Positions 1,873 through 36,120 of a stretch of DNA of 64,000 nucleotides are shown here, in pieces. The stretch is from Anaerolineae bacterium. Lineage in GTDB: Bacteria; Chloroflexota; Anaerolineae; B4-G1; DUEL01. Under the pieces are notes generated by a model. It ran no database searches, had not been told where the DNA came from, and saw only the letters and a list, made by a program, of their open reading frames with translations. Location of the stretch: assembly GCA_034434635.1 (NCBI GenBank), contig DAOTYX010000079.1:16212-80211 (forward strand). Reading direction: 5' to 3'. How positions within the stretch are numbered: the stretch's first letter is position 1; each line of letters starts with the position of its first letter. Position numbers and translations under genes: made by a program.

Positions 1873-2091
1873 CGGGGGACGCGGAGACGCGTGCACAAGA
1901 GAGAGCCAGCACCTGCTCAATCTGCTGACCGATTCCTGGCTTTTCGGCACTCTAAACCAGGAACAACGCTCAAGGGAAACTACCCAGCCGTCGGAGCGAT
2001 CCCCCTGCGGGTTCGGGAGATGGCTTCGTCGCCCGGAACCTGCCCTTTTGGCGGCAGACCGAACGGTTACGAACGAAAAAGAACGGAAAGG

Positions 2092-2120
2092 TTGACAGGG
2101 TTCGTTATTTGTGGTAAGAT
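2092..2120 (+). promoter_or_regulatory. Sigma70-like promoter TTGACA–17 nt–TAAGAT; its -10 overlaps the first ATG (2119).
   Basis: TTGACA at 2092..2097 and TAAGAT at 2115..2120. The predicted TSS is about 2127, immediately before ATG 2128, implying a leaderless mRNA. Confidence 0.4.
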
Positions 2121-2127
2121 GGATTCA

Positions 2128-2889
2128 ATGGAAACAGAAGAGGGGAGTCAGACCGCGCGGCGGCGGGCAGAGATCGCCCGGCTGATCACGGAGGCCGGGA
2201 TGGTGCAGGTGGCAAGCCTGGTTGCCCGCTTCGGCGTGACCCCGCCCACCATCCGCCGTGACCTGGAATGGCTGGAGGCACAGGGGTTGGCCCGCCGGGT
2301 GCACGGCGGGGCGCTGGCGTTGACCGGCCGCTCCCCCTCCCCCTTCACCCCGGAGGCGATCCCCGCCCGCATCGGGCGGGCAGCGGCGGCCCTGGCGCAG
2401 GACGGCGAGACGCTCTTCATCACCCCTGGACTGCTGGCGCTGGAGACGGCGCGGGCGCTGACCGGTCGCCAGAGGCTCACCATCGTCACCAACAGCCTGG
2501 CCGTCGCCCGCCAGGTGGCCGAGGGGAGCGACCACACCCTCATCCTCACCGGCGGACAACTGGAGCGGCATGATCAGGGGTTGGTCGGCCATCTGGCTCA
2601 CCTGGCCCTGCCCTCGCTGCGTGCCGACCGGCTGTTCCTGGAACTGGACGGGGTCAACGCCGTCGCCGGCCTGACCACCGACAGCCTGCCCCAGGCCGAG
2701 TTGGCCCGCCTGCTGCTCGACCTGAAGGCCGAAGTGGTGGCCCTGGTGCCGCCGGAGCGGGTGGGCCGCGTGGCCGCTGTCCTCATCGCCGCCGCCTCTG
2801 AAGCCGATGTGATCGTCACCGCCCGCGAGGCCGACTCCGCTCCCTTGTGGGATCTGGCGGAACTGGGAGTGCGGGTGGTGCTGGCGTAG
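2128..2889 (+). CDS. DeoR/GlpR-family transcriptional regulator
   Basis: An N-terminal HTH (ARRRAEIARLITEAGMVQVASLVARFGVTPPTIRRDLEWLE) followed by a DeoR C-terminal sugar-binding-like domain. The start was chosen at the second ATG from promoter geometry. The ORF track begins upstream at 1891. Confidence 0.7.
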   Translation: METEEGSQTARRRAEIARLITEAGMVQVASLVARFGVTPPTIRRDLEWLEAQGLARRVHGGALALTGRSPSPFTPEAIPARIGRAAAALAQDGETLFITPGLLALETARALTGRQRLTIVTNSLAVARQVAEGSDHTLILTGGQLERHDQGLVGHLAHLALPSLRADRLFLELDGVNAVAGLTTDSLPQAELARLLLDLKAEVVALVPPERVGRVAAVLIAAASEADVIVTAREADSAPLWDLAELGVRVVLA

Positions 2890-2930
2890 GAGACAGGGAG
2901 AAGAGGAGAAGAAAAGAAAGGAGAGCGAGA

Positions 2931-4031
2931 ATGGCAAGTGTGACATTCGACCATGTGACCAAGCGCTTCGGCGATGTCATCGCTGTCAACGACCTCAGCC
3001 TGGAGATCGCCGACAACGAGTTTCTGGTCTTCGTAGGCCCGTCCGGCTGTGGCAAGACCACGGCCCTGCGCCTGCTGGCCGGCCTGGAAGAGGCCACTAC
3101 AGGCGACATCTACATCGGCGACCGGCGGGTCAACGATGTGCCGCCCAAGGATCGCGACATCGCCATGGTCTTCCAGTCCTATGCTCTCTACCCGCACATG
3201 AGCGTCTACGAGAACATGGCCTTTGGTCTGCGCCTGCGCAAGACCCCCAAGGCGGAGATTGATCGGCGGGTGAAGGAGGCCGCCCAGATTCTGGGCATCG
3301 AGCACCTGCTCGACCGCAAGCCGAAGCAACTATCCGGCGGTCAGCGGCAGCGGGTGGCGGTGGGCCGCGCCATCGTCCGTGAGCCTAAGGTCTTCCTGAT
3401 GGACGAGCCGCTCTCCAACCTGGATGCCAAACTGCGCGTGCAGGCCCGCGCGGAACTCTCCAAACTCCATCAGCGGCTGGGCACGACCTTCATCTACGTG
3501 ACCCACGACCAGGTTGAGGCGATGACGATGGGCACACGCATCGCCGTGATCAACGCCGGCGTGTTGCAGCAGGTGGACACACCGCACAACCTCTACCAGT
3601 CGCCGGCCAACATCTTTGTCGCCGGCTTCATCGGCAGCCCGGCGATGAACTTCTTCGACGCCCGGCTGGTCGAGCAGGACGGCAAGATCGCGGCGGAAAC
3701 TTCCGACTTCGTCGTCAGCATCCCCGAGAGCCGCCAGGAGGTCTATCGGCCGCACCTGGGCCGCGAGGTCGTCCTCGGCATCCGCCCGGAAGACATCCAC
3801 GACCCCGAGTTCGCCCCACCGGCGATCCACGCCGCCCACGTCACGGCCCGGGTCGCCGTGACAGAACTGATGGGCAACGAGGTCGTGGTCTACCTGGATA
3901 CCGCCAGGCATGAGTTCCTCGGCCGCTTCGACCCGCGCACGAAGGCGCGCGTGGGCCAGGAGATGACCGTGGCCTTCAACATGGGCAACATGCACGTCTT
4001 CGACAAGGCGACGGAACAGGCGATTCGGTGA
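2931..4031 (+). CDS. ABC transporter ATP-binding protein, MalK/UgpC-like sugar importer ATPase
   Basis: Walker A GPSGCGKTT, the LSGGQRQRVA signature and a Walker B. The C-terminal regulatory (TOBE-like) domain is present. Confidence 0.8.
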   Translation: MASVTFDHVTKRFGDVIAVNDLSLEIADNEFLVFVGPSGCGKTTALRLLAGLEEATTGDIYIGDRRVNDVPPKDRDIAMVFQSYALYPHMSVYENMAFGLRLRKTPKAEIDRRVKEAAQILGIEHLLDRKPKQLSGGQRQRVAVGRAIVREPKVFLMDEPLSNLDAKLRVQARAELSKLHQRLGTTFIYVTHDQVEAMTMGTRIAVINAGVLQQVDTPHNLYQSPANIFVAGFIGSPAMNFFDARLVEQDGKIAAETSDFVVSIPESRQEVYRPHLGREVVLGIRPEDIHDPEFAPPAIHAAHVTARVAVTELMGNEVVVYLDTARHEFLGRFDPRTKARVGQEMTVAFNMGNMHVFDKATEQAIR

Positions 4032-4125
4032 CGCGGAGCGCGGAGACACGGAGATCGTCGGAGAGCGGATCCTCGAACATCTGAAGTATCAGACCTTCGC
4101 TGCCCTCAGATACCGCAACTATCGG

Positions 4126-5298
4126 TTGTGGTTCTGGGGGCAGATGGTGTCTCTCTTTGGCACCTGGATGCAGTCCACTGCCCAGGGCTATCTGGTTTAC
4201 GAGTTGACCCGCTCGCCTGCCTATCTGGGGTACGTCAGTTTTGCCTCCGGCGTCCCGACCTGGCTGTTCATGCTCTACGCCGGCGTCATCGCCGACCGCA
4301 TCCCCCGGCGCACGCTGCTGCTCATCACCCAAAGCAGCATGATGCTGCTGGCCTTCATCCTGGCCGGGTTGACCTTTGGCGGCGTCGTGCAGCCGTGGCA
4401 CATCGTCATCCTGGCCGCCGGCCTGGGCGTGGCGAACGCCTTCGACGCCCCAGCCCGCCTGGCCTTCGTGCCGGAACTGGTAGAACAGCGGGAAGACCTG
4501 ACCAACGCCATCGCGCTGAACGCGACGATGTTCAACACAGCGACGATGATCGGCCCGGCGGTGGCCGGGATGGCTTACTCCCTCTTCGGGCCAGGATGGT
4601 GCTTCACCATCAACGGCCTCTCCTTCCTCGCCGTTATCGCCGCGCTGCTGCGCATGCGGTTAGCCTCTCCCGCACCCTCCTCCAACCCGCGCCGCGCCAT
4701 CCTCCCAGAATTGCGCGCCGGGTTCCGCTACGTCATCGCCCACCCCACCATCCGCCTGCTGATCGGCCTGATCGCCATCGCCAGCCTTTTCGGCGTCTCC
4801 TTCGTCACGCTGATGCCAGCCTGGGCGGTCAACGTGCTGCGGGGGGATGCCACCACCAACGGACTGCTCCTTTCGGCGCGGGGGACAGGAGCGCTCATCA
4901 GTGCCCTGGGTATCGCCTCACTGGGCCGCTTCCGGTTCAAGGGGCGCCTGCTGACCGTGGGCACGTTCGTCTTCCCCATCGCCCTGCTGGTCTTCGCGCA
5001 GGTGCGCTGGTTGCCGCTCTCTATGGCCATCCTGGTGGTCGTGGGGGCTTCAATGGTGCTGGTCTTGAACCTGGCCAACGCTCTGGTTCAGACCGAGGCA
5101 GCGGACGAACTGCGTGGGCGGGTGATGAGCATCTACAGCCTGCTCTTCTTCGGCCTGATGCCACTGGGCTCGCTGTGGGTCGGTACGTTGGCCGACCACA
5201 CCAGCGAGCCCATCACGTTGACCATCGGGGCGCTGATCACCCTGGGTTGCGCCGCGCTGGTCTGGCTATTCGCTCCGCGGTTGCGCGCGCTGCCCTGA
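4126..5298 (+). CDS. MFS transporter
   Basis: Twelve predicted TM segments. The N-terminus ALRYRNYRLWFWGQ matches the conserved start of the MFS_3/EntS-like families. The ORF track uses a TTG start. No in-frame ATG or GTG lies upstream, so the start is uncertain (4054..4144). Confidence 0.65.
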   Translation: MWFWGQMVSLFGTWMQSTAQGYLVYELTRSPAYLGYVSFASGVPTWLFMLYAGVIADRIPRRTLLLITQSSMMLLAFILAGLTFGGVVQPWHIVILAAGLGVANAFDAPARLAFVPELVEQREDLTNAIALNATMFNTATMIGPAVAGMAYSLFGPGWCFTINGLSFLAVIAALLRMRLASPAPSSNPRRAILPELRAGFRYVIAHPTIRLLIGLIAIASLFGVSFVTLMPAWAVNVLRGDATTNGLLLSARGTGALISALGIASLGRFRFKGRLLTVGTFVFPIALLVFAQVRWLPLSMAILVVVGASMVLVLNLANALVQTEAADELRGRVMSIYSLLFFGLMPLGSLWVGTLADHTSEPITLTIGALITLGCAALVWLFAPRLRALP

Positions 5299-5380
5299 GA
5301 ATCCCCGGTTCGTAACCGCCCAGCCTGTGCCCTCTCGCAGGTCCTGGCGCAAGCGCCAGCACCTGCGGGAGGGTGTACAC

Positions 5381-6676
5381 TCAGGACACCTGCGCCGCCC
5401 GTTCCCGCTCCGCCCGCTCGCGCATCTGCTGGCGCAGCGTGTGGATGTCGGTCGGCAGCAGGTAGGCAGCCACGAAGAAGAAGGCCGCGCACAGCACCCA
5501 GGTGGAGACGCAGATGAGCAGGATGGCGTTGTGCAGCGAGGAGCGCACAGCGATCAGTCCGGCTATCAACGGCGCCAGCGCCGCTCCTGCCGACTCGATG
5601 AAACTCTCGATGGCCAGGGCGGTGCTGCGTACCTCTGGCAGGGTGATGTCGTACACCGTGGAGACGACATTGGGCGCAGCGAAGGGGATGAACAGGGCGG
5701 TCAGGCACAGCAGGCCCATGAACAAGCCGCGATTGTCGAGCGGGACGTTGAGCGTCAGCGTGAGCAGGATCGCCCCCAGGAGCACCGCCGTGGCGGAGAC
5801 CAGCGCCCGGCCGCGCGGCGTGCGCTTGAAGAAGAAGTCCCCTGTCGCCCCGCCGACGAAATAACCCGCCGCCAGCACCAGCACCGCCGGAACCATCGTC
5901 GTGAAGACCGCCTCCGACGGATACCCCCGTTCCGTCTCCAGGTAGCGGAAGAACCAGTAGGTGATGACGTTCCACGGGAAGACGCCGAAGAAGCCCTGCA
6001 CGAAGATCAGCAGCAGGCTGCGCTTGCGGAACAGGTCCCCGGCCAGCCGCCAGTTGAAGCGATAGACGCCGATCCGCTCCAGGTCCTCCAATTCTGGTTC
6101 GCTCTTACCACGAGGGGCCTCGCGCACCCCAAAGAAGATGACCACTGCCAGGAGGATGCCCAGCGAGCCAGTGATGTAGAACACCCCACGCCAGCCGATC
6201 ATGCCGCTAAGCAGCAAGCCCAGGATCATCCCCAGCAGGTAGCCCAGGGGCGCGGTCAACTGGAGGATGCCGTAGATACGGCTGCGCACCTGCGGCGGGA
6301 AGTAGTCGGCGATCAGGCTGTAGAGGCCAGGATAACTGGAGTCGTCAATGCCGGTGGAGGCGCGGGTGGCCAGGAAGGACGGGTAGGTGCGCACGACCGC
6401 GCTGAGCCAGGTGGTGGCTCCCCAGATGAACGAGGCCAGCGCCAGCAGTTTGGAGCGCGCGTACCGGTCATACAGGTACCCCCACAGCGGGTAGAAGATG
6501 ACGCCGACGATCAGCGCGCCGGTGAAGACCGCTCCCATCTGCGCCTCGTTGATGCCGAAGGTCTCCATGATCGGAGTGGTGAGCGGTCCGATGAGCAGTT
6601 TGTCCGCCTGATGCAACAGCATGAAGCAGAAGAATACTACAACGACGAACCAGCGGTGCCGTGATGACGCACTCAT
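5381..6676 (-). CDS. MFS transporter
   Basis: 431 aa with 12 TM segments and MFS motifs (GPLTTPIMETFG, LWGYLYDRYARSK). The long plus-strand ORF 5327..6664 is its antisense shadow. Confidence 0.75.
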   Translation of the reverse strand: MSASSRHRWFVVVVFFCFMLLHQADKLLIGPLTTPIMETFGINEAQMGAVFTGALIVGVIFYPLWGYLYDRYARSKLLALASFIWGATTWLSAVVRTYPSFLATRASTGIDDSSYPGLYSLIADYFPPQVRSRIYGILQLTAPLGYLLGMILGLLLSGMIGWRGVFYITGSLGILLAVVIFFGVREAPRGKSEPELEDLERIGVYRFNWRLAGDLFRKRSLLLIFVQGFFGVFPWNVITYWFFRYLETERGYPSEAVFTTMVPAVLVLAAGYFVGGATGDFFFKRTPRGRALVSATAVLLGAILLTLTLNVPLDNRGLFMGLLCLTALFIPFAAPNVVSTVYDITLPEVRSTALAIESFIESAGAALAPLIAGLIAVRSSLHNAILLICVSTWVLCAAFFFVAAYLLPTDIHTLRQQMRERAERERAAQVS

Positions 6677-6752
6677 CCTTTTCCTCCCTGTCGTGGAATG
6701 GACACGGTGCTCTGACGACTCGCCGTGCCGGGCGTGGTCTCGTCGCCGTGCC

Positions 6753-6776
6753 GGGCGCGGTCTTCCGACCGCGCCC
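6753..6776. terminator. GC-rich hairpin GGGCGCGGTC-ttcc-GACCGCGCCC downstream of the PIG-L gene (repeat family C).
   Basis: A perfect 10-bp stem. The same stem sequence recurs at 8326, 17241 and 49105. It lies 3' of the minus-strand gene ending at 6791. The preceding ~20 nt are tandemly duplicated (cgccgtgccgggcg(t/c)ggtct). Confidence 0.45.
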
Positions 6777-6790
6777 CTACAGATGGGAGA

Positions 6791-7585
6791 TCATGACCCG
6801 GCAAGCAGGGCCTCCACCAGCGGATGAAAACGCTCGTAGCGGAACGGTTCGCCGAACGGCACGCCAATGCGCTGGCCGGCGGCAGCGGCCTGCGCCCGTA
6901 CGGCCAGGCCCACCAGCGCTGCGGGGTCCGCACCCGCCGCCTCCAGCAGCGGGCGCGGGTCCACACCAGCCAGCCGCATCTGCCGCAGCACCCCCTCGAC
7001 CAGAAAAGCCATCTGGCTCTCGTGCGCGGCCAGCGCTGCCAGTTTCGTCTCCAGCGTGGCCGTGATGTCCACCACCTTGTTGACGCCCGCATCGCTTTCA
7101 GCGTAGAAGTACTTCTCGGCAACCTGATGAGGCTCCAACCCCTCATCACGATGCTCCGGGTGCACCAGCGGCAGGCCTGCTGCGTTCACCGCCTCTGTCG
7201 CCGCCCAGGCCACGGCGCGATGGTCGGGATGCCAGTCGCCGGGCGCGAAGGGGTCCTCGGCAATGAGCGCGTCGGGGCGGTACTGGCGGATGGCGCGGAT
7301 GAACTCCTGGCGCAACGCTCCAGGCGGCAACTGCTCCAGTCCCATATCAGGGTGACCGAGCATCACCGGCGGCTCAGCGCCCAGGATACTCGCCGCGCGC
7401 ATCGCCTCCCGCCGGCGTACCTGCACCAACGCCTCGGCGGTGTGCTCAAAAGAGCCCTTACTGCCGTCCGTGGCGACGACGATCACCACCCGCCGCCCTT
7501 CTTTGACCATCCGGGCGATGGTCCCGCCAGCGAAGAACTCAGCATCGTCGGGATGAGGTACTAAAACAAGGGTCGTCTGCGACAT
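6791..7585 (-). CDS. PIG-L family deacetylase (LmbE-like)
   Basis: The N-terminus VLVPHPDDAEFFAGGT and the HPDH motif are typical of PIG-L/LmbE N-acetylglucosaminyl deacetylases. Confidence 0.75.
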   Translation of the reverse strand: MSQTTLVLVPHPDDAEFFAGGTIARMVKEGRRVVIVVATDGSKGSFEHTAEALVQVRRREAMRAASILGAEPPVMLGHPDMGLEQLPPGALRQEFIRAIRQYRPDALIAEDPFAPGDWHPDHRAVAWAATEAVNAAGLPLVHPEHRDEGLEPHQVAEKYFYAESDAGVNKVVDITATLETKLAALAAHESQMAFLVEGVLRQMRLAGVDPRPLLEAAGADPAALVGLAVRAQAAAAGQRIGVPFGEPFRYERFHPLVEALLAGS

Positions 7586-7601
7586 TCCACCTCCTCGTTG
7601 T

Positions 7602-8228
7602 CTAAAGACTCACCCATGGATTGAAGCGCTTTTCGTGGCCCACTGTGGTCTGAGGGCCATGGCCAGGATAGAGCACCGTTTCATCCGGCAGTTCGAAGAG
7701 GACCTGACGGATAGAATGAAGCAGGGTGGCCCAGTCCCCGCCAGGCAGGTCCGTGCGGCCGACCCCCTCGGCGAAGAGGGCATCGCCATCGAAAGCCATC
7801 CCCTCCTGTTCCAGGTAGAAGGTCACCCCGCCGGGGGAGTGTCCTGGGGTATGCAGCACCTGGAGGCGCAGCGTGCCCACCTCCAGCACCTGGCCGGCGA
7901 CGAGTTCCACGTCGGGCAGGGGGCTGGGCTTCACTGTCACGCCGAACCACGCGGCCCCGCCGCGCGCCTGAAGGATGGGGAGTTCGGCAGGATGAAGCGC
8001 CAGTTGCGCGCCGGTGGCGGCGAGGATGTCGGCATTGGCTGCCATATGGTCGAAATGACAGTGGGTATTGAGCACGTAACGAGCGGTCAGGCCGTGCTCC
8101 TTCAGGGCGGCCAGGATCCGTTCAGGGTGGCCGCCGGGGTCAATCACCGCCGCCTCACGGGTCTGCTCGCAGGCGAGAAGGTAGCAATTGGTCTGGGTGA
8201 TGCCGACGACAAGCGTGTGCAGGATCAT
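7602..8228 (-). CDS. MBL-fold metallo-hydrolase (glyoxalase II-like)
   Basis: HTHCHFDH metal-binding motif and the downstream HTPGHSPGG. Confidence 0.75.
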   Translation of the reverse strand: MILHTLVVGITQTNCYLLACEQTREAAVIDPGGHPERILAALKEHGLTARYVLNTHCHFDHMAANADILAATGAQLALHPAELPILQARGGAAWFGVTVKPSPLPDVELVAGQVLEVGTLRLQVLHTPGHSPGGVTFYLEQEGMAFDGDALFAEGVGRTDLPGGDWATLLHSIRQVLFELPDETVLYPGHGPQTTVGHEKRFNPWVSL

Positions 8229-8325
8229 GCGCGTCTCCTGTGTATGCTGTCAGGGCAGCGGCTGGCGGGCCAGGGGACGGCCAGACTATACCATCATCGG
8301 CGTGGTTGCGCAAGTGGAAAAGATT

Positions 8326-8348
8326 GGGCGCGGTCTCCGACCGCGCCC
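8326..8348. terminator. Family C hairpin GGGCGCGGTC-tccg-ACCGCGCCC downstream of the beta-helix gene
   Basis: The same stem as at 6753 and 49105. It lies 3' of the minus-strand gene ending at 8374. Confidence 0.4.
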
Positions 8349-8373
8349 AACGGCGACTCGACGAGACGGAGCG

Positions 8374-10572
8374 CTAGCCGTTGCGCAGCACCAGCGGCAG
8401 GTAGAGATAAGGCAGTTCGTCTGCCCCCACGTCGGGGGCCGCGCCCATCGGGCGCGGGTCTCCATCCATGTCCCACGCCACCCAGACCAGGGGGGTGGCA
8501 TGATTGATAGCGTTGGAGCCAAGGGTCAGGTGGTAATCCGCCGCCAGCCCTGCTGGTCCGGGCACTTCGTTTGTGCTGGTAACCCCCACCCCATAGTTGG
8601 CCCCGTTGCCCTCGAAGAGCGTGTGGTCAGCAGTGACCGTGCTGCCCCCCGGCGAGGCATTGACGATGCCCGTCGTCTGGCTGACGATGATGGTGTTGGT
8701 CAGCCACACCGTGCTCGATGCGCCGACGTAGACCCCCACGCCGTCGCCAAACCGGTTTTCGGCGATAGTGTTGTGCGCCACGCGGCCATTGACACCGCCG
8801 CTGCCAGCGATCGCCACCCCGCTGCCCTGCGCGCTGGTCGCGGCAGTTGTGGTGATCCCATTGCGGGCGACGATGTTGTTGGTCAGGGTGAAGATGTCGC
8901 TTGCCGTCAGATCTACGCCTCCACCCACACCACCGCTCGTGCCGATAGCCCGGTTATCCAGGATGATGTTGCCCTCCAGCCAGGGGTTGCTGCCTCCGAT
9001 TGAGAAACCGCCGCCATATCCCCATTCCGCGCCTCCGTCGCCGGTGGTGTTGCTCAGGACCTGGTTCCCAACGAACCGGGGGGCGCCGGCCCAGACATAA
9101 ACGCCGCCGCCCACTCCGCGCGCGTTGGTCCCGCAGGCGGCTTCATTGCGGGCGATCAGGTTGTCCTGGACAAGGGCGTTGCTGTTGTGGAGCGCCATCC
9201 CGCCGCCGTAAGCCCATTCGCCGGGCGCCCAGACAACCGTATCGTTTTCAGCGATGACATTGTCCCGGAGTACCCCGCTCCCGCCGCTGACGTAGATGCC
9301 GCCACCCTCAGCAGGGGCGCCGGAGGAAGCGGTGTTACGGACTATCTGGTTCTCCACCACCGTAGCGTCGCACTCTTCCAGGTAGAGGCCGCCGCCATAG
9401 CCATTGGCAGCGTAACTGGCGCGGTTGCCGTCGGAAATGACGTTGCCGGCCACCAGCGCGGCAGCGGAGAGATGCGAGAGGTACATCCCCCCGCCCAGAC
9501 CCCGCGGGCCGGTAGTGGCGGTGTTGCCATAGACACGATTGTCGCGGATGAGAGCAAGAGGGCCGCCAAAACAGATGCCCCCGCCCCGGTTGTAGAGGCC
9601 CGCGCTGGCCGTCCCCTGCAGCGCGATGTTCCCGTCGAAGAGGTTGCGCTCGATGGTCACCGGCGAGCCGGAGGAGACATAGATGCCGCCGCCGTTGCCC
9701 ATCACGCCCTGACCGGCGACGTTCTGCAGAAAATCGTTGTCGGCGATGAGCGGGCTGCCGCCGACCACCGCGATCCCTCCGCCGTCACCGGCCGAGTGGC
9801 CGGCGCGGTTGGCGCGGATGGTGTTGGAGAGCACCTGCGGCGAGGCGTTCACCAGATAGATGCCGCCCCCCTGCCCCCAGGTGGCGTCGTCGGCGACATT
9901 GTTGGCGATGAGGTTGTCGCTGATGACGGCAGAGGCAGAGACGGTATCCAGGAAGATGCCGCCGCCGCGCCCATAGCCGGTGCAGGCCATCGTTGTGCAG
10001 CCATAGTTAGCGGTGATGATGTTGCTGAGGATGATGGGGGCCGCGTCCTGCACGGCGATGCCGCCGCCGTGGTTGGGCTGATCGGTGGCCCCTCCGGCGT
10101 TGCCGTTGGTGATGGTAAAGCAAAAGATAGTGGGGCTGGCATGGGTGATGCTGATCACCCGCTGGGTCCCATCCCCGCTCAGGACCACGTTCTCCGGCGC
10201 GCAGGGTACGGAAGTGAAGGTCCACCCTCCCCCAAAGGGGTTCGGGTGAGCCGCCCATGCCCCGTCCAGGGTTACGGACCTGGTGATGATGATCGTGCCG
10301 TAGTAGGTCGAAGCGCCGGCGATGTCATCGCGGTCGGCCACGCAGATCCTCTCGCCAGCCGAGGCCCTGCTCAGGGCATACTGGACACTCTTGCACGGGT
10401 CGTTGGGGTTGTCACAGTGATTGGTCGAACTGTTGTTGCCGCCATTGACCACATAGCGGTCGCAGACGGGCGCGGCCTGGCCGGGCTGGCTGGTCAGCGC
10501 CAGCAGGCTCCAGACGAGGAGAGCCAGCCCCAGGGCCAGGCTCAGGACGATCAGCCAGTGTTTCGCCTGCAT
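8374..10572 (-). CDS. Secreted right-handed parallel beta-helix repeat protein (pectate-lyase/NosD-like fold)
   Basis: An N-terminal signal peptide (MQAKHWLIVLSLALGLALLVWSLLA) and numerous periodic GGGIY/GGGG repeats typical of parallel beta-helix repeats. The 999-aa plus-strand ORF 9187..12186 is antisense to this gene and its neighbour. Confidence 0.6.
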   Translation of the reverse strand: MQAKHWLIVLSLALGLALLVWSLLALTSQPGQAAPVCDRYVVNGGNNSSTNHCDNPNDPCKSVQYALSRASAGERICVADRDDIAGASTYYGTIIITRSVTLDGAWAAHPNPFGGGWTFTSVPCAPENVVLSGDGTQRVISITHASPTIFCFTITNGNAGGATDQPNHGGGIAVQDAAPIILSNIITANYGCTTMACTGYGRGGGIFLDTVSASAVISDNLIANNVADDATWGQGGGIYLVNASPQVLSNTIRANRAGHSAGDGGGIAVVGGSPLIADNDFLQNVAGQGVMGNGGGIYVSSGSPVTIERNLFDGNIALQGTASAGLYNRGGGICFGGPLALIRDNRVYGNTATTGPRGLGGGMYLSHLSAAALVAGNVISDGNRASYAANGYGGGLYLEECDATVVENQIVRNTASSGAPAEGGGIYVSGGSGVLRDNVIAENDTVVWAPGEWAYGGGMALHNSNALVQDNLIARNEAACGTNARGVGGGVYVWAGAPRFVGNQVLSNTTGDGGAEWGYGGGFSIGGSNPWLEGNIILDNRAIGTSGGVGGGVDLTASDIFTLTNNIVARNGITTTAATSAQGSGVAIAGSGGVNGRVAHNTIAENRFGDGVGVYVGASSTVWLTNTIIVSQTTGIVNASPGGSTVTADHTLFEGNGANYGVGVTSTNEVPGPAGLAADYHLTLGSNAINHATPLVWVAWDMDGDPRPMGAAPDVGADELPYLYLPLVLRNG

Positions 10573-23600: not shown

Positions 23601-26243
23601 TCACCCTCCGGCGGCCAGTTGCCCCGGCGTGAAGGTCATCCCGCCGTCGGTGGAATGGGCGATGTAGACATCCCACTCGTCGCCGCGCTGATGCGCCCAG
23701 GCCACGTGGATGCGACCCGCGCCGTCCACAGCGACCGTGGGGGTGTGCAACACGTCTCCATCCGCCTGCGCCACCCCGACCCCGGCGCTGAAGGTGCGCC
23801 CGCCGTCGTCGGAGCGGTAGAACCACACCCAACTCCCATCGCGCGGGCTGTAGGTGGTGAGGGCCACATAGATGGTGGTGCCGTCAGCGGTCAGGCTAAC
23901 CTCGGTCGGGCGGACGGAGACGTACCGATAGCCCTCACCCACCTGCCGCGGGTCGGTGAAGGTCGCCCCGCCGTCGGCGGAGAGGGCGTAGACGGGCAGA
24001 TAGAGGAGCGCGTTGTAGGTGGGGTGGCGAATATAGGCGTTGCTCCAGGCCAGATGGACGTGACCGCGAGGCCCCATCGCCAGGGCAGGGAGTTCGTCGC
24101 TCAGGTCAGCCACCAGGCCGCTGCCCACGACCCGGTCTGCGCCAAAGCCGCCCCCTGCGTCGACGGCGTATCGGATGGCCCAGGCGCCCGAGCGGTCGTC
24201 GGCCCAGGCCACGTGGACGCGGCCCTGCCCATCCACGCCGATGACCGGGTCTACCTGCTGGCCGCCGGCGGGGTCGTTGACGCGCACGTTGACGCCGAAA
24301 GAGGCGCAACCGTCGGATGAACGGGCCGTGTAGATGTCCCAATCCCCGTCGCGACGGTCCTGCCAGGCCAGGACGACCAGGCCGTCCCGCCCGGCGGCCA
24401 GCGCCGGGTGGCCCTGCTCTGCACTGCCGATGTCGACACTGACGAGTACAGCGGGCGCGAAGGTGAGCCCATCGTCGGAACGGGCGCAGAAGATGTCCCC
24501 GCTGCCGTAGCGCCAGTCCTCCCAGGCGATGTAGACGCGGCCGTCGGGAGCCACGGCCAGCGCAGGGTAGCCGCGCCCGGGGGTGGGCGCCTGAGGGTTC
24601 ACCGCCGCCAGCGGGGTGAAGGTAAGGCCGCCGTCAGTCGAGCGGGCGGCGTGGACCTCCCATGAGCCGCTGCTTGTGTCGGCCCAGGCCAGGTAGAGGG
24701 CGGCAGGGCCGGCGGCCAGCACGGGGTGCGGGGCGGTGTGCACCGGGACGGCAGCGGAGGAGGCAGGAGTAGAGGTCGGGATAAGAGGGGTCTCCTCCGT
24801 CAAGAAGCCGACCGCGATGAAGGAGTTGCGCCCACGGTCGTTCAGGCAGACCGTGCCGCCGCTGGGCAGGCTCACTTCGAGGAAGAGGACGTCGCCAGGT
24901 CGGCCGTCCAGGGCAGGACCACGGGCGATGCCGTTGTCCTCCCCCTCGCGGCCCTGCCACTCCGCCAGCAACCTCTCCTGACCGTCACGCAGGCGCAGCA
25001 GCAGGCGCACGTTGTACCGTCCGCGGATACCGGGAAGAGAATAACTGTACGTGTCGCCGTCCAGGGGATGGGTCAGCGTGAACGCCCAGGTCTGGACGCA
25101 CTGCCAGGTGCATTCCATGTAGGAACTGGTGTTTGCTGGCGGCGGCTCCACGGTGAGCACCCCCTCTTCACCCAGATAGAACCGCTGGACGGAGGAGACC
25201 TCTGGGATGACAGCGGGCACGGTGGGGGCGGTGGTGGGGGAGACGACAGGCGTGCCCGAAAGGCGGTTGTAAAGGGAGATCAGCACGCTGCCGCCCAGCA
25301 GCAACGCTGCCAGCAGGCACGCCACGGCCAGAAGGGCCAGCAGCGCGTAGCCCCAGGCCGGGAGACGGCGAGTGGGTGCGCGGCGGGGAACCGGGCGGGT
25401 GGCCGCCTCACCTGCCGTCTCTGCCACCTCCACCGCGGCCAGCGCCTGGGCCAGTTCCCCGGCTGTCTGGTAGCGGTCCTCCGGCCGCTTGGCCAGCGCC
25501 TTGAGGATGATCCTTTCGACGCTCTCCGGCATAGCGGGGTTGAGGATGCGCGGCAGGGGCAGTGGGTCGTGGATGTGCTTGACCAACACGGCCATCGGCG
25601 TCTCAGCCAGGAAGGGGGGGCGGCCGGTCAGCATCTCGTAGAGGATCACGCCCAGCGAGTAGACATCGCTCCGCCCGTCCAGAGGCTGGCCCAGGGCCTG
25701 CTCCGGCGAGGCGTAGGCAGGCGTGCCAAGAAAGTCGCCGGTGGCGGTGATGTGACTGGTCCCCTCCAGCATCTTGGCGATGCCGAAATCGCTCAACAGA
25801 CAGTTGCCCTGCTCGTCCATCAGCACGTTGCTGGGCTTCACGTCGCGGTGGACGACCGAGCGGGAGTGGGCATAATCCAGCGCGGCGGCGAGTTGGGAGA
25901 GGATGCGGCGGGCTTCCGGGAGCGGGAGAGGCCGGCCCTTCAGGCGATCGGCCAGGGTGCCGCCCTCGACGTAGCGCATCACCAGGTAGGTGTAGCCATC
26001 GGCCTCGCCGTAGTCGTACACCGGAAGGATGTGGGGGTGCTCCAGGCTGGCGATGACCCGCGCCTCCTGCGCGAAGCGCCGGGCGAAGCCGGGCTCGGCG
26101 GCGTAGTGGCGCGGCAGGATCTTGAGGGCGACGATGCGGTCCATGCTGGGCTGGAAGGCCTTGTAGACCGCAGCCATCCCGCCCTCGCCAAGCGGAGCGA
26201 TGACCCGATACGGACCCAGTTGCCGACCGCTGAGATCTTCCAT
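23601..26243 (-). CDS. Ser/Thr protein kinase with extracellular BNR/Asp-box repeat (sialidase-like beta-propeller) sensor domain
   Basis: Kinase subdomains (GEGGMAAVYKA, HRDVKPSNVLMD, DFGIAK), one TM helix (LPAWGYALLALLAVACLLAALLLGG), then repeated SxDxGxTF/W Asp-boxes (STDGGLTFT, SDDGLTFA, SADGGATFT, SDDGGRTFS, STDGGMTFT). Confidence 0.8.
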   Translation of the reverse strand: MEDLSGRQLGPYRVIAPLGEGGMAAVYKAFQPSMDRIVALKILPRHYAAEPGFARRFAQEARVIASLEHPHILPVYDYGEADGYTYLVMRYVEGGTLADRLKGRPLPLPEARRILSQLAAALDYAHSRSVVHRDVKPSNVLMDEQGNCLLSDFGIAKMLEGTSHITATGDFLGTPAYASPEQALGQPLDGRSDVYSLGVILYEMLTGRPPFLAETPMAVLVKHIHDPLPLPRILNPAMPESVERIILKALAKRPEDRYQTAGELAQALAAVEVAETAGEAATRPVPRRAPTRRLPAWGYALLALLAVACLLAALLLGGSVLISLYNRLSGTPVVSPTTAPTVPAVIPEVSSVQRFYLGEEGVLTVEPPPANTSSYMECTWQCVQTWAFTLTHPLDGDTYSYSLPGIRGRYNVRLLLRLRDGQERLLAEWQGREGEDNGIARGPALDGRPGDVLFLEVSLPSGGTVCLNDRGRNSFIAVGFLTEETPLIPTSTPASSAAVPVHTAPHPVLAAGPAALYLAWADTSSGSWEVHAARSTDGGLTFTPLAAVNPQAPTPGRGYPALAVAPDGRVYIAWEDWRYGSGDIFCARSDDGLTFAPAVLVSVDIGSAEQGHPALAAGRDGLVVLAWQDRRDGDWDIYTARSSDGCASFGVNVRVNDPAGGQQVDPVIGVDGQGRVHVAWADDRSGAWAIRYAVDAGGGFGADRVVGSGLVADLSDELPALAMGPRGHVHLAWSNAYIRHPTYNALLYLPVYALSADGGATFTDPRQVGEGYRYVSVRPTEVSLTADGTTIYVALTTYSPRDGSWVWFYRSDDGGRTFSAGVGVAQADGDVLHTPTVAVDGAGRIHVAWAHQRGDEWDVYIAHSTDGGMTFTPGQLAAGG

Positions 26244-27142: not shown

Positions 27143-27181
27143 ACAGGCACCTATCAGGTGCCTGCCACCTGACGTCACCTG
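27143..27181. repeat. Family D element ACAGGCACCT-atc-AGGTGCCTG…TGACGTCACCTG overlapping the stop codon of the thioredoxin-like gene
   Basis: Closely similar to 17783..17821. It provides the AGG TGA stop of the gene ending at 27175 and a 9-bp-stem hairpin. Confidence 0.5.
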
Positions 27182-27687
27182 AGCAGGCGTTGAATCTCCT
27201 GGCGCAGGTGCTCTTCCGTACCTGTGCCGTAGCCGATGTCACTCATCAGGATCGTGCCGTCAGCGGCGATCAGGTAGAGGGTGGGCGTGCCGCCGACGCG
27301 GTAGGCACTGGAGGCCCTGCCGTTCTCGTCCAGGACGGTCAGCAGAGAAACCTCGGCATCGTCCAGCGCCCGGTGCGCATCATCGGCGGAACCCATGCAG
27401 ATGGTGATCAGCACCAGATGCTCATCAGCGAACTCCTCTTCCAGGGCTGCCAGGACCGGCAGCTCTTCCAGGCAGGGAGGTCAAGAGGGACTCCAGAAGT
27501 CGAGCAGGACAGGACGCCCGGCGTAGTTGGAGAGGGAGATGTCGGCCCCTTCCAGGCTGGTGAGGGTGAAATCCGGCGCGACGGTGCCGTTCTCCAGCGG
27601 CCCGACCCCAAACAGCGAGAGCAGGCAGCAGGAAGAGAGGGTCGCCAGCGTCAGCAAGATGACAGAGATGTGGCTCTTCACCGGCAT
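27175..27687 (-). CDS. TlpA/ResA-like thiol:disulfide oxidoreductase with an in-frame TGA at the first Cys of the CxxC motif (candidate selenoprotein, UPPC)
   Basis: Signal peptide/TM, then APDFTLTSLEGADISLSNYAGRPVLLDFWSPS-[TGA 27483..27481]-PPCLEELPVLAALEEEFADEHLVL…GGTPTLYLIAADGTIL. This is collinear with TlpA (…VLLNFWASWCPPCR…). An AGGAGA RBS is present. The ATG overlaps the stop of the upstream peptidase gene. A hairpin GCUGCC-GGUCCU-GGCAGC starts 17 nt 3' of the UGA. Confidence 0.5.
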
Positions 27688-29015
27688 TCTCCTGTGGTCA
27701 GGCTCGTCTCGTGCGCCCAACCTCCGCTCCGCGAACAGCGGAGCCGGATGACCAGGCCGAGCGTCATGAGTCCCGCCGCACCGGCGCAGGGCAGGCAGGG
27801 AAGCGCGGGGGCGGGGGATGGCGCAAGTGGTGCGCTGGTGGGCCGTGGAGGGACGGTGGGGCGCTGGTCGGGCGGGCGTGGTGTGGCGCCGGTAGCGTTG
27901 GGGATGGGGGTGGGATAGGTGCCGGCTTTCTGGCCCAGCCATTCCCACCAGGCCTGTTGGAACTCCTCGAAGTTCAGGCCGGTCGCCTCCAGCAGGGCCT
28001 CGTCGGTGTTGCTGCCGGCGCGGAAGGCGGCCAGCAGGCGGCTCATCCCCTCGCTGCCCCAACGCTCGAACAGGAAAGTCACCGCGCTCAGGCTTTCCGC
28101 GTAGAGCAGGGCGACGCGCTCCTCATCGCCGGAGAAACTGCCGGTGGCCAGGCGCAAGGGAATCAACTCGCCGCTTCGGGCAGCCTCCTCCACGCGCCGC
28201 AGGGCGGCATCTGGGGGAAAGAACTCGAAATACTGGGCGAGACCCTCGTTCAACCAGGTGGGTGGGTAAGTGCTGAAGGCGTCACCGTGCACGACCTGGT
28301 AGAAGTAGAGGTGGGCGATCTCGTGCGGAATCACCCCGCGCAGGTACCATGGGTTGAGGGTCGCCTCCTGCGGCGGGATGATCTGCACGGTCAGCCCCAT
28401 CTCCGTGAATGCCTGCCCTCCCACCCATTCCTGCACGTACTGATGCCATGAGGCGAAGTCCTCGGCGTTACCGTACACGACCACCACGATCTGGTTGGGC
28501 AGAGACGTGCCTGTTGTTTCCTCCATCGTCTTGATGGCACGGTCGGCCCAGTTGAAGACTTCCTGGCCGAAGGTCGCGTCCCCGTCGTACCACCAGATCG
28601 CCAGATCCCCGTTCTCCAGAGTCTGCCAGTCGAAGCGGGAGTCCACGACGGTGAACTCCTCCGCCTCGCTGGTGAGCGCATGGCCAGCGTCGTCGCGGAT
28701 GGTCCAGGTATAGTGGACGCGGGCGCCAGGCGGGATGCCCCGCCGGCGCGGCGCCCAGTCCGCCTGGGCGGTCACCTGAGGGCCTGGCGTGAACTCGGCC
28801 ACCAGGACCTCGGTCGAGGAGTCGCCGCGGATACCGATGTTGAGCGTCACGCTGCTGATGTCCCCCTGAGCGGTGCTGGCCTCGACCTGGAAGGTGATAT
28901 TTTCCGGGTAACTGTTGGTCACTGTCGTTGCGCCGATGGTGATCGGGTTCTCGGCCTGCAGCGGGGGGGCCAGGAGGGAAAGGAGAAGCAGCACCGTCGG
29001 CCAGTGCGGGTTCAC
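27678..29015 (-). CDS. Secreted zinc metallopeptidase, Peptidase_MA-like (HExxH…NEGxAxY)
   Basis: A signal peptide follows the GTG start (VNPHWPTVLLLLSLLAPPLQA). The motifs are HEIAHLYFYQ and WLNEGLAQYFE. A PT-rich linker leads to a C-terminal hydrophobic segment plus basic tail. The GTG start overlaps the TGA of the radical SAM gene (GTGA). Confidence 0.55.
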   Translation of the reverse strand: MNPHWPTVLLLLSLLAPPLQAENPITIGATTVTNSYPENITFQVEASTAQGDISSVTLNIGIRGDSSTEVLVAEFTPGPQVTAQADWAPRRRGIPPGARVHYTWTIRDDAGHALTSEAEEFTVVDSRFDWQTLENGDLAIWWYDGDATFGQEVFNWADRAIKTMEETTGTSLPNQIVVVVYGNAEDFASWHQYVQEWVGGQAFTEMGLTVQIIPPQEATLNPWYLRGVIPHEIAHLYFYQVVHGDAFSTYPPTWLNEGLAQYFEFFPPDAALRRVEEAARSGELIPLRLATGSFSGDEERVALLYAESLSAVTFLFERWGSEGMSRLLAAFRAGSNTDEALLEATGLNFEEFQQAWWEWLGQKAGTYPTPIPNATGATPRPPDQRPTVPPRPTSAPLAPSPAPALPCLPCAGAAGLMTLGLVIRLRCSRSGGWAHETSLTTGECR

Positions 29016-29983
29016 CGACACCCCCCCTGCGCCGCTTCGGGCCGCTCCCCGGCGTCGGCCTCGATGCGCGTCGCGCCCGACCACACTGCCACAGGGACGC
29101 GTTGGATGGCGACGCCGTGCAGCGTTTCCATCTCAGCGCGGGTCAGCAATGGTGTGCCCTCCAGGGCGTACTGGCGGTCAAGGCGGTGGTACTTGGGCTG
29201 GCCCAGGTTGGTGTAGGCCAGCAGGTCCCACCGTTGGACAGTGGGGAGGTTGGCGGCGATGAAGTCGCCCAGGGCGGCGATGTTGTCCGCGTCGGCGGTG
29301 TAGCCGGGGATGACGGGGGTGCGGATCCACATCGGCAGCCCGGCGGCGGCGATGCGGCGGGCGTTCTCCAGGATAGCGCGGTTATCCATACCCGTGGCAG
29401 CGCGGTGACGGCCCGCGTCGAACAGTTTGAGGTCATAGAGCACCAGGTCCACCCACGGCAGTACCTGTTCCATCCGCTCCCAGGGGACGGCGCCGCATGT
29501 GTCGAGGGCGACGTGGATGCCGGCGGCGCGGCAGAGGCGGGCCAGCGCCAGGACGAAGTCGGCCTGGGCCAGCGGCTCGCCGCCGGAGAACGTCACCCCG
29601 CCGCCGGAGGTCTCGTAGAAGACCGTGTCTTTCTGGATTTCGGCGCAGAGCGCTTCCGGTGTCCACTCCCGGCCGATGACCTCCAGCGCTCCGGCTGGGC
29701 AGGCGCTGGCGCAGTCGCCGCAGGCGGTGCAGCGGGCGCGGTCGATGCGCATCCCCTGCGGGGTCAGTTCCAGCGCGCCAACCGGGCAGGCGCGCAGGCA
29801 GTCGCGCGCGGCGATGCAGCGCAGGTCATACCAGACCAGTTCCGGGCGCGGGGAGAGCCCTTCGGGGTTGTGACACCAGGCGCAACGGAGGGGGCAGCCC
29901 TTGAAGAAGACGGTGGTGCGGATGCCGGGGCCGTCCTCGGTGCTGAAACGCTGCAGGTTGAAAGTCGTGCCGATCATGCTCAT
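29012..29983 (-). CDS. Radical SAM enzyme, glycyl-radical-enzyme activating protein family (PflA-like with ferredoxin-type insert)
   Basis: GCPLRCAWCHNPE (CxxxCxxC). Two additional Cys clusters (CIAARDCLRACP, CTACGDCASACP) typical of long GRE activases. A C-terminal TIM-barrel portion. A GGGGAGAG RBS precedes ATG 29983. Confidence 0.7.
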   Translation of the reverse strand: MSMIGTTFNLQRFSTEDGPGIRTTVFFKGCPLRCAWCHNPEGLSPRPELVWYDLRCIAARDCLRACPVGALELTPQGMRIDRARCTACGDCASACPAGALEVIGREWTPEALCAEIQKDTVFYETSGGGVTFSGGEPLAQADFVLALARLCRAAGIHVALDTCGAVPWERMEQVLPWVDLVLYDLKLFDAGRHRAATGMDNRAILENARRIAAAGLPMWIRTPVIPGYTADADNIAALGDFIAANLPTVQRWDLLAYTNLGQPKYHRLDRQYALEGTPLLTRAEMETLHGVAIQRVPVAVWSGATRIEADAGERPEAAQGGCR

Positions 29984-30034
29984 CTCTCCCCATTCTACTC
30001 CGTACTGTCGCTCCGCACAAGCGCGGAAGCGCAG

Positions 30035-30122
30035 GGGATTTCGAAGCAAATCCCAATCTGGGGACGGAGTCGAGGCTTTAGCCAGCGCAAACGTGGCTCA
30101 AACCGGCTGAAGCCTCGACTCC
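30035..30122. repeat. Two strong hairpins in a divergent intergenic region: GGGATTT-cgaagc-AAATCCC (30035..30054) and an 18-bp-stem hairpin GGAGTCGAGGCTTTAGCC…GGCTGAAGCCTCGACTCC (30066..30122)
   Basis: Inverted repeats read directly. The second has one G·U pair in 18 bp with a 21-nt loop. Confidence 0.55.
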
Positions 30123-35851: not shown

Positions 35852-35924
<73 letters not shown>

Positions 35925-35964
35925 CTGCCGCAGGGAGCAATCAGCCCAACGCTGATCTTTGCAG

Positions 35965-36038
35965 GGGCCCGTAGCGCAGTCTGGGAGCGCGTCTCAATGG
36001 CATTGAGAAGGCCGAGGGTTCGAATCCCTCCGGGTCCA
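35965..36038 (+). tRNA. tRNA-Ala (anticodon GGC)
   Basis: Acceptor GGGCCCG/CGGGTCC with G3:U70. D arm GCGC-AGTCTGGGA-GCGC. Anticodon arm TCTCA-ATGGCAT-TGAGA. T arm GAGGG-TTCGAAT-CCCTC. Discriminator A. Confidence 0.9.
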
Positions 36039-36120
36039 CCTGAACGGTTGGTGCGTCCATTCGATGACGGAGAGCCCCTTCGTCCGCAAAGGCGAGGGGG
36101 TTCTTGCTAGGAGTCATCCC

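Follow-up and report, generated by a model that had tools for sequence, protein, structure and literature searches.

Does a TGA at the catalytic position of a thioredoxin-like gene end the protein, or is it translated, and if so as which amino acid? The question is raised by a minus-strand gene in a 64,000-nucleotide stretch of DNA from an Anaerolineae bacterium (Chloroflexota; contig DAOTYX010000079.1, assembly GCA_034434635.1). The whole of this stretch is referred to here as the window. A first-pass annotation, made from the sequence alone, had proposed that the gene is a candidate UxxC selenoprotein, in which selenocysteine (Sec, U) occupies the place of the first Cys of a CxxC motif. That proposal is supported by conservation of the TGA, by purifying selection, by orthologues with Cys at the same position, and by a downstream hairpin whose intact form is confined to the TGA-bearing genes. 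With a probability of about 0.88, the product is a TlpA/ResA-type thiol-disulfide oxidoreductase that is anchored in the membrane, probably acts outside the cytoplasm and has Sec in a U-P-P-C motif, the UGA being decoded by means of the hairpin and SelB.

The TlpA/ResA-like AhpC-TSA/Redoxin frame contains a single internal TGA (27483..27481) and no further stop until the TGA terminator at 27177..27175. The internal codon lies in the context ...GRPVLLDFWSPS-TGA-PPCLEELPVLAAL...; directly after the TGA the frame reads PPCLEELPVL, giving the predicted active-site motif FWSPS-U-PPC. The first-pass annotation had described the same frame, running through a TGA at the first catalytic Cys and ending at 27175. 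It reads as described, and the Pfam and Protein Data Bank (PDB) alignments agree with it. The parts of the gene that matter for the argument are as follows.

27175..27681, minus strand: full coding sequence of the predicted selenoprotein, with a thioredoxin fold (168 aa, Sec as residue 67; from the translation, Pfam and the PDB profile).
27481..27483, minus strand: in-frame TGA, putatively read as Sec, the first residue of U-P-P-C (the aligned codon is TGA in 10/10 Sec forms).
27472..27474, minus strand: TGC codon for the putative resolving Cys of UxxC (Cys invariant in 13/13 family members).

Public gene callers cut the window gene into products of 66 aa and 79 aa. The gene is likewise split in all public gene calls examined (Logan, JGI, ENA, and the stretch in the GenBank metagenome-assembled genome, MAG), and its relatives have to be recovered from fragments. 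Among 5.8 billion proteins, the three closest matches (P0001-P0003, 59-67% identity) are fragments of 98-100 aa that start right after PPC. On the corresponding contigs, L001-L003, a separate upstream fragment ends 9 nt before each C-terminal fragment. Translated through, each of these loci has one in-frame TGA at the aligned codon, and the frame is otherwise intact. A codon-level DNA pattern recovered two orthologues of lower G+C content from JGI metagenomes, L004 (identical to L005) and L006, both with FWSPT-U-KPC; it had no match in the contigs of GTDB-representative genomes. A profile search of 1.84 billion representative proteins, combined with contig look-ups, added L017 (FWTST-U-RAC), L021 (FWTPT-U-GPC) and L022 (FWSTT-U-RPC). 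A profile scan of GTDB species genomes contributed L023 (FWSTT-U-KPC), from the GenBank MAG 'Anaerolineae bacterium isolate H23_313'; that scan had two matches in Anaerolineae MAGs, a Sec form and a Cys form, and no closer relative turned up.

These searches give ten distinct TGA-bearing sequences, or Sec forms: the window gene, L001, L002, L003, L004/L005, L006, L017, L021, L022 and L023. The aligned codon is TGA in all ten, and the set contains no other stop and no frameshift. Pairwise amino-acid identity has a minimum of 49% among the first six sequences and falls to 40% against the window protein in the wider set. Three further orthologues of the same architecture carry another codon at this position and complete a family of 13. 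Two encode Cys (TGT), namely L020 (181-696) and L024 (about 10001-10492, from 'Anaerolineae bacterium H23_299'). The third, found at L015 10001-10513 and L016 1437-1949, encodes Gly (GGC) in the motif FWNST-G-PPC. The Gly form is without an attacking nucleophile and may be a redox-inactive or single-Cys variant. Alignment against Cys-containing relatives had been suggested as a check in the first-pass annotation, and it bore the proposal out, the aligned codon being TGT in L020 and L024 and the aligned residue Cys in ResA and DsbE.

The codons 3' of the TGA are under purifying selection. On six orthologues, the ratio of nonsynonymous to synonymous substitutions (dN/dS; Nei-Gojobori, every computable pair) is 0.14-0.46 before the TGA, where one pair is saturated, and 0.17-0.46 after it. 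Synonymous divergence among the same six reaches 0.5-0.8 per site. A gene truncated at codon 67 would not hold 100 downstream codons intact across such divergence, and we therefore conclude that the TGA is translated through. A near-identical strain that was assembled independently (L007, Logan SRR5248374) differs from the window at 5 positions in 7,050 nt (99.93% identity). The TGA is preserved in it, and the single difference that falls within the gene is synonymous. TGA is also the commonest stop in the window, ending 28/50 putative genes, this gene's own terminator included. A window scan for other TGA-split open reading frames (ORFs) with coding-like third-position G+C content on both sides of the TGA found none convincing besides this gene. 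Simpler accounts of the TGA can be set aside, sequencing error because the independent assembly has the same TGA, genome-wide reassignment because TGA is the commonest ordinary stop in the window, and a frameshift because the frame is the same on both sides of the codon.

The position of the TGA within the fold is defined by profile comparisons. With U read as C, the best Pfam match is AhpC-TSA (PF00578; E=2.3e-20, 73.2 bits against a cut-off of 26), followed by Redoxin (PF08534; 5.3e-17, 62.4 bits against a cut-off of 26.6), and residues 34-155 are covered. The family profile matches the PDB structures of a DsbE-like protein (3gl3, 1.6e-27), Bacillus subtilis ResA (1st9, 3.1e-27) and TlpA (1jfu, 2.5e-14). 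The TGA column pairs with the first CxxC Cys of the solved ResA (CEPC), DsbE and TlpA structures, and the profile alignment places fWsstCkpC against FWGTWCEPC. Within the family alignment, the U/C-x-x-C motif is present, its second Cys is invariant, and so is a T-P motif. T-P corresponds to the cis-Pro loop of thioredoxin folds. The score against the ResA subfamily model (NCBIfam NF002854) is 77.2 bits, below the cut-off of 170, and the protein is therefore described as ResA-like and not as a ResA equivalog.

The protein may also be exported. A hydrophobic N-terminus with a conserved Cys is present in all family members, and the Cys (column -50) is invariant in 9/9 Sec forms with an available N-terminus; a canonical lipobox occurs in some members only. 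In the window protein, the relevant segment is as follows.

27607..27681, minus strand: putative N-terminal signal or membrane-anchor segment, briefly basic at first and then hydrophobic, with its conserved Cys in a lipobox-like L-S-S-C (from the sequence pattern).

With such an N-terminus, the protein may be a lipoprotein or be held by a signal anchor, facing outward as ResA, TlpA and DsbE do. Export and lipidation are predicted from the N-terminal sequence.

A candidate signal for translation of the TGA lies downstream of it in the mRNA. The first-pass annotation had noted a hairpin of the form GCUGCC-GGUCCU-GGCAGC 17 nt 3' of the UGA and had judged its geometry to fit a bacterial Sec insertion sequence (SECIS) element. 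The hairpin was found again at 27463..27446, starting exactly 17 nt after the UGA, and is part of the minimum-free-energy (MFE) fold.

27446..27463, minus strand: core of the putative bacterial SECIS hairpin (single-sequence fold, -11.6 kcal/mol; consensus structure; synonymous variation).

The hairpin, GCUGCC(G)-GGUCCU-(U)GGCAGC, has a stem of 6-7 bp, and the 5' end of the loop reads GGUC. The apical loop is 6 nt long, or 4 nt (GUCC) if a G-U pair closes it, and the spacing from the UGA to the loop is 23-24 nt. The bacterial SECIS (bSECIS) model specifies a loop of 3-9 nt, an upper stem of 4-16 bp, a G within the first two nucleotides of the loop, a UGA-to-loop distance of 16-37 nt, and an MFE <= -7.5 kcal/mol (PMC13188914). 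The hairpin falls within every one of these limits. It also agrees with an account of SECIS elements according to which the stem has 6-8 bp and the loop, about 20 nt past the UGA, contains a conserved G (PMC4605307). The geometric claim therefore stands, with the addition that the structure is intact in Sec forms and weakened in non-Sec forms.

Comparison with relatives provides most of the support for the hairpin. It occurs in the same register in 10/10 Sec forms, with folding energies of -8.6 to -12.1 kcal/mol, and the Sec-form consensus is a stem YUGCC(G)/(U)GGCAR with a loop GGUCCU or GGUCUU. For six sequences, RNAalifold returns a 7-bp stem and a 3-bp lower helix with 100% of cells paired. 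A compensatory change from C-G to U-A is seen in L001, and the same U-A pair in L017; in L006, a U-A pair has become U-G wobble; the remaining change, CTG to TTG, sits in the loop. Codon choice is constrained here as well. Residues invariant among the Sec forms have a codon entropy of 0.38 bits within the hairpin (L-P-V-L-A) vs 0.96 bits at the 28 others (Mann-Whitney, one-sided p = 0.008).

The non-Sec orthologues encode the same ELPVL peptide, and they have the three weakest hairpins of the 13 (-7.7, -5.2 and -4.9 kcal/mol). The chance that the non-Sec forms would fill the three lowest of 13 ranks is 1/286. In the Cys forms, L020 and L024, the hairpin has two G-U wobbles and a GGUA loop, and in the Gly form the stem is broken. 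The weakened hairpin of the Cys forms suggests a decaying relic, and hence a conversion in the direction Sec to Cys.

Taken together, these features suggest a mechanism of the conventional bacterial kind. When the UGA at 27481-27483 enters the ribosomal A site, it would not act as a stop signal. The hairpin that lies 17 nt further along the mRNA would serve as a bacterial SECIS element and recruit SelB-GTP with Sec-tRNA(Sec), which would bring Sec to the UGA. In the folded enzyme, the selenolate would be the nucleophile that attacks substrate disulfides, and the resulting selenenylsulfide would then be resolved by the Cys three residues further on. Both the binding of SelB to the hairpin and the identity of the inserted residue as Sec are predicted here from comparative sequence evidence.

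Several observations weigh against this interpretation. As a single sequence, the hairpin region does not fold exceptionally well (z = -1.36, in DNA of 66% G+C), so its significance rests on the comparison with relatives. There, the covariation support is modest or suggestive, since the observed score was reached by 42/500 shuffled controls; with a hairpin that varies so little, stronger statistics are not to be expected. No family in Rfam matches, either at gathering thresholds over the window or in a permissive scan of 27380-27530, which gave chance matches only (E > 3). Finally, no selA, selB, selD or tRNA-Sec gene is present in the 64-kb window, in about 6 kb past its end, or at the orthologue loci. 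None of these proteins was found among 20 window ORFs scanned with Pfam and NCBIfam, a set that contains all ORFs of the size of SelA, SelB or SelD. No tRNA-Sec was found by ARAGORN in the window and 13 orthologue loci, although ARAGORN may overlook the 8/4-type tRNA-Sec reported for Chloroflexi, or by Rfam in the window.

The absence of Sec genes from these regions is uninformative, because such genes need not be linked to their targets. At the level of the lineage, the literature makes the Sec trait plausible. Single-cell genomes of Anaerolineales contain genes for Sec-type formate dehydrogenases and for elongation factors specific to Sec, and Anaerolinea thermophila has a gene for SelB (PMC4959059). 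tRNA-Sec is known in Chloroflexi (PMC5389517), and the selenoproteomes of Dehalococcoidia are among the richest (PMC13326102).

The explanation that survives best besides Sec insertion accepts hairpin-assisted translation of the UGA and differs only in the residue delivered. This could be Cys, brought by a SelC*-type tRNA(Cys)-UCA and a SelB paralogue, or Trp or Cys inserted by near-cognate read-through. The comparative data bear on translation of the codon and on the importance of the hairpin, and not on the identity of the amino acid. Moreover, SelC* tRNA(Cys)/SelB* systems are known in some anaerobes (PMC5389517). However, SelC* tRNA(Cys) has been reported from Firmicutes, Thermodesulfobacteria, Nitrospirae and Proteobacteria, but not from Chloroflexi (PMC5389517). 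For the insertion of Cys, a TGY codon would suffice without a hairpin, and L020 and L024, which switched to TGT, have indeed let the hairpin decay. The hairpin also matches the SelB-type consensus (PMC13188914). Non-Sec recoding is disfavoured by the decay of the hairpin in the TGT forms and by the lack of reports of SelC* from Chloroflexi, and we regard it as improbable. The same low likelihood applies to its clade-wide version, in which hairpin-dependent UGA recoding in this Anaerolineae clade delivers another residue, for example Cys through a tRNA-Sec-like tRNA(Cys)-UCA and a SelB paralogue. If true, this would mean that the alternative recoding system also occurs in Chloroflexota and acts on an exported thiol reductase. 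A milder variant keeps Sec as the residue: the clade might be a subfamily of its own that evolved independently, made up of exported selenoproteins of the lipoprotein type, with recurrent turnover from Sec to Cys and from Sec to Gly.

A pseudogene, in which a chance nonsense mutation struck the catalytic Cys codon, is very improbable. It would account for the fact that all public gene callers stop the ORF at the TGA and report fragments, and TGA is a normal stop codon in this genome. However, the same TGA is kept in 10 diverged orthologues without secondary stops or frameshifts, dN/dS is about 0.2-0.45 3' of it, the hairpin is conserved, and the independent assembly L007 is concordant. The orthologue loci have pairwise identities of 40-87%, which excludes chimaeric assemblies of one sequence. 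A dead gene would not remain intact over such synonymous divergence, and this reading is effectively refuted. Relatives with fragments or frameshifts had been named in the first-pass annotation as the sign of a pseudogene; instead, ten orthologues are intact around the same TGA, and both halves are under purifying selection in the six sequences analysed.

Equally remote is the proposal of two small proteins, a 66-aa N-terminal one and one of about 80-100 aa with its own start, that form a split thioredoxin fold: callers do place starts shortly 3' of the TGA in several orthologues (P0001-P0003), but the downstream start varies in identity (CTG, GTG or ATG) and in codon position, lies 23 codons past the TGA in the window, and has no ribosome-binding site, while the frame is kept in every orthologue and the invariant resolving Cys and x-P between the TGA and these starts would be untranslated, yet are conserved.

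How does the predicted selenoprotein relate to known ones? Among predicted selenoproteins, those of the UxxC thiol-disulfide oxidoreductase-like type are an established class (PMC13188914, Table 1), and, according to recent reviews, such predicted families date from 2004-2005 onward. Among the closest described groups are the 'Prx-like thiol:disulfide oxidoreductase' selenoproteins (PF00578, UxxC/UxxU, WP_010940744.1). The window gene shares with them the PF00578 domain and the UxxC motif, with Sec in place of the first CxxC Cys. In known UxxC selenoproteins, the SECIS element likewise lies within the coding sequence just after the UGA, and Cys homologues are far commoner than Sec forms. The gene may belong to one of the known UxxC families or represent an independent Cys-to-Sec conversion in Anaerolineae. 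The window clade lacks the Trp that usually precedes CxxC, with FWS[PT][ST]-U where W[AG][ST]W-C is usual.

ResA (1st9/1su9), Bradyrhizobium TlpA (1jfu) and DsbE/CcmG, which are membrane-anchored extracytoplasmic thiol-disulfide reductases, have the same fold, length, redox motif position and T-P as the window protein, whose hydrophobic N-terminus would correspond to their anchor, but use Cys where the window gene has UGA. No NCBIfam selenoprotein model captures the window protein. The model for ResA-like WAxxUGC selenoproteins (NF041054) also describes a TlpA/ResA-like Sec protein, but one of about 354 aa rather than 168 aa, with WAxxUGC instead of U-P-P-C. The window protein, with FWSPSUPPC, scores 44.2 bits against a cut-off of 300 and is not a member.

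The archetypal SelB-binding hairpin is the SECIS element of E. coli fdhF, whose sequence was verified against 5,419 E. coli genomes and then folded. It is the same type of hairpin, within the coding sequence directly 3' of the UGA, and the 5' end of its loop also reads GGUC. The loop starts 23-24 nt after the UGA in the window gene vs 18 nt in fdhF, and the stem of the window gene, rich in G+C and paired throughout, has no counterpart to the bulged U of fdhF.

The start of the gene required one revision. The first-pass annotation had begun the protein at ATG 27687, which adds two residues (170-residue product), and had credited the gene with its own ribosome-binding site and translational coupling to the upstream gene. 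The latter two hold for a start at GTG 27681, which is probably the true one.

27689..27692, minus strand: Shine-Dalgarno sequence GGAG, 7 nt 5' of GTG 27681 (from the sequence; AGGAG-7 nt-GTG is kept in L002).

The start is placed at 27681 on account of the Shine-Dalgarno spacing, the absence of the ATG from L002, and the overlap with the upstream gene. GGAG lies only 1 nt 5' of ATG 27687 vs 7 nt 5' of GTG 27681. The closest orthologue, L002 (79% amino-acid identity), lacks the ATG and retains the GTG with AGGAG at 7 nt, and L001 has GGAGG 6 nt 5' of the equivalent GTG. In the sequence GTGA, the GTG shares bases with the TGA stop (27678-27680) of the coupled gene upstream, which encodes a Peptidase_MA_2 protein (1e-28).

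The gene's neighbours in the window are the coupled Peptidase_MA gene, a PNPOx-like gene and a Ser/Thr kinase, and no neighbourhood is conserved across the whole clade. The kinase gene (23601-26243, minus strand), two genes downstream, encodes 880 aa with C-terminal BNR/sialidase-like repeats. Two genes upstream lies a gene for a glycyl-radical-enzyme activating protein (29012-30049, minus strand; TIGR02494, 337 bits), with no adjoining glycyl-radical enzyme. The same kind of radical-SAM/ferredoxin gene is found directly upstream of the orthologues in L022 (1902-2864) and L023 (7382-8305). The recurrence could reflect a functional link or mere shared ancestry.

Within the window, no cytochrome c maturation genes flank the gene. 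In L017, and in this lineage only, the region 7209-9117, 0.7-1.4 kb upstream of the orthologue, contains a gene with a faint Pfam match to ResB (cytochrome c biogenesis), which lies 1.4 kb upstream, and a 238-aa gene without a Pfam match. The ResB-like neighbour might point to a part in cytochrome c maturation like that of ResA.

Other features were noted in passing. Two large proteins, P0042 (1562 aa) and P0064 (2925 aa), have 13 and 14 separate matches, respectively, to the C-terminal TlpA-like profile and appear to be arrays of thioredoxin-like repeats. A tandem pair of tRNA-Ala genes (anticodons CGC and GGC), 40 nt apart, lies in the window at 35852-36040 (plus strand). On L068, a 1942-aa ORF without a Pfam match (2015-7843) lies directly upstream of Peptidase_C25, MraZ and FtsZ genes. 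It runs past the end of the window at 64000 (overlap about 62198-64000, minus strand) and is kept in all assemblies of this organism.

The window gene is one more example of an already catalogued kind of selenoprotein, and knowledge of Sec decoding and of thiol-disulfide oxidoreductases is unchanged by it. Since the gene is mis-annotated as two fragments and is not captured by NCBIfam models, the clade adds a well-supported, predicted UxxC protein to the selenoproteome of Anaerolineae (Chloroflexota). It also offers a natural series within one orthologue, in which Sec, Cys and Gly forms are accompanied by a putative SECIS element that is intact, decaying and broken, respectively. This series illustrates the joint gain or loss of a Sec codon and its SECIS element.

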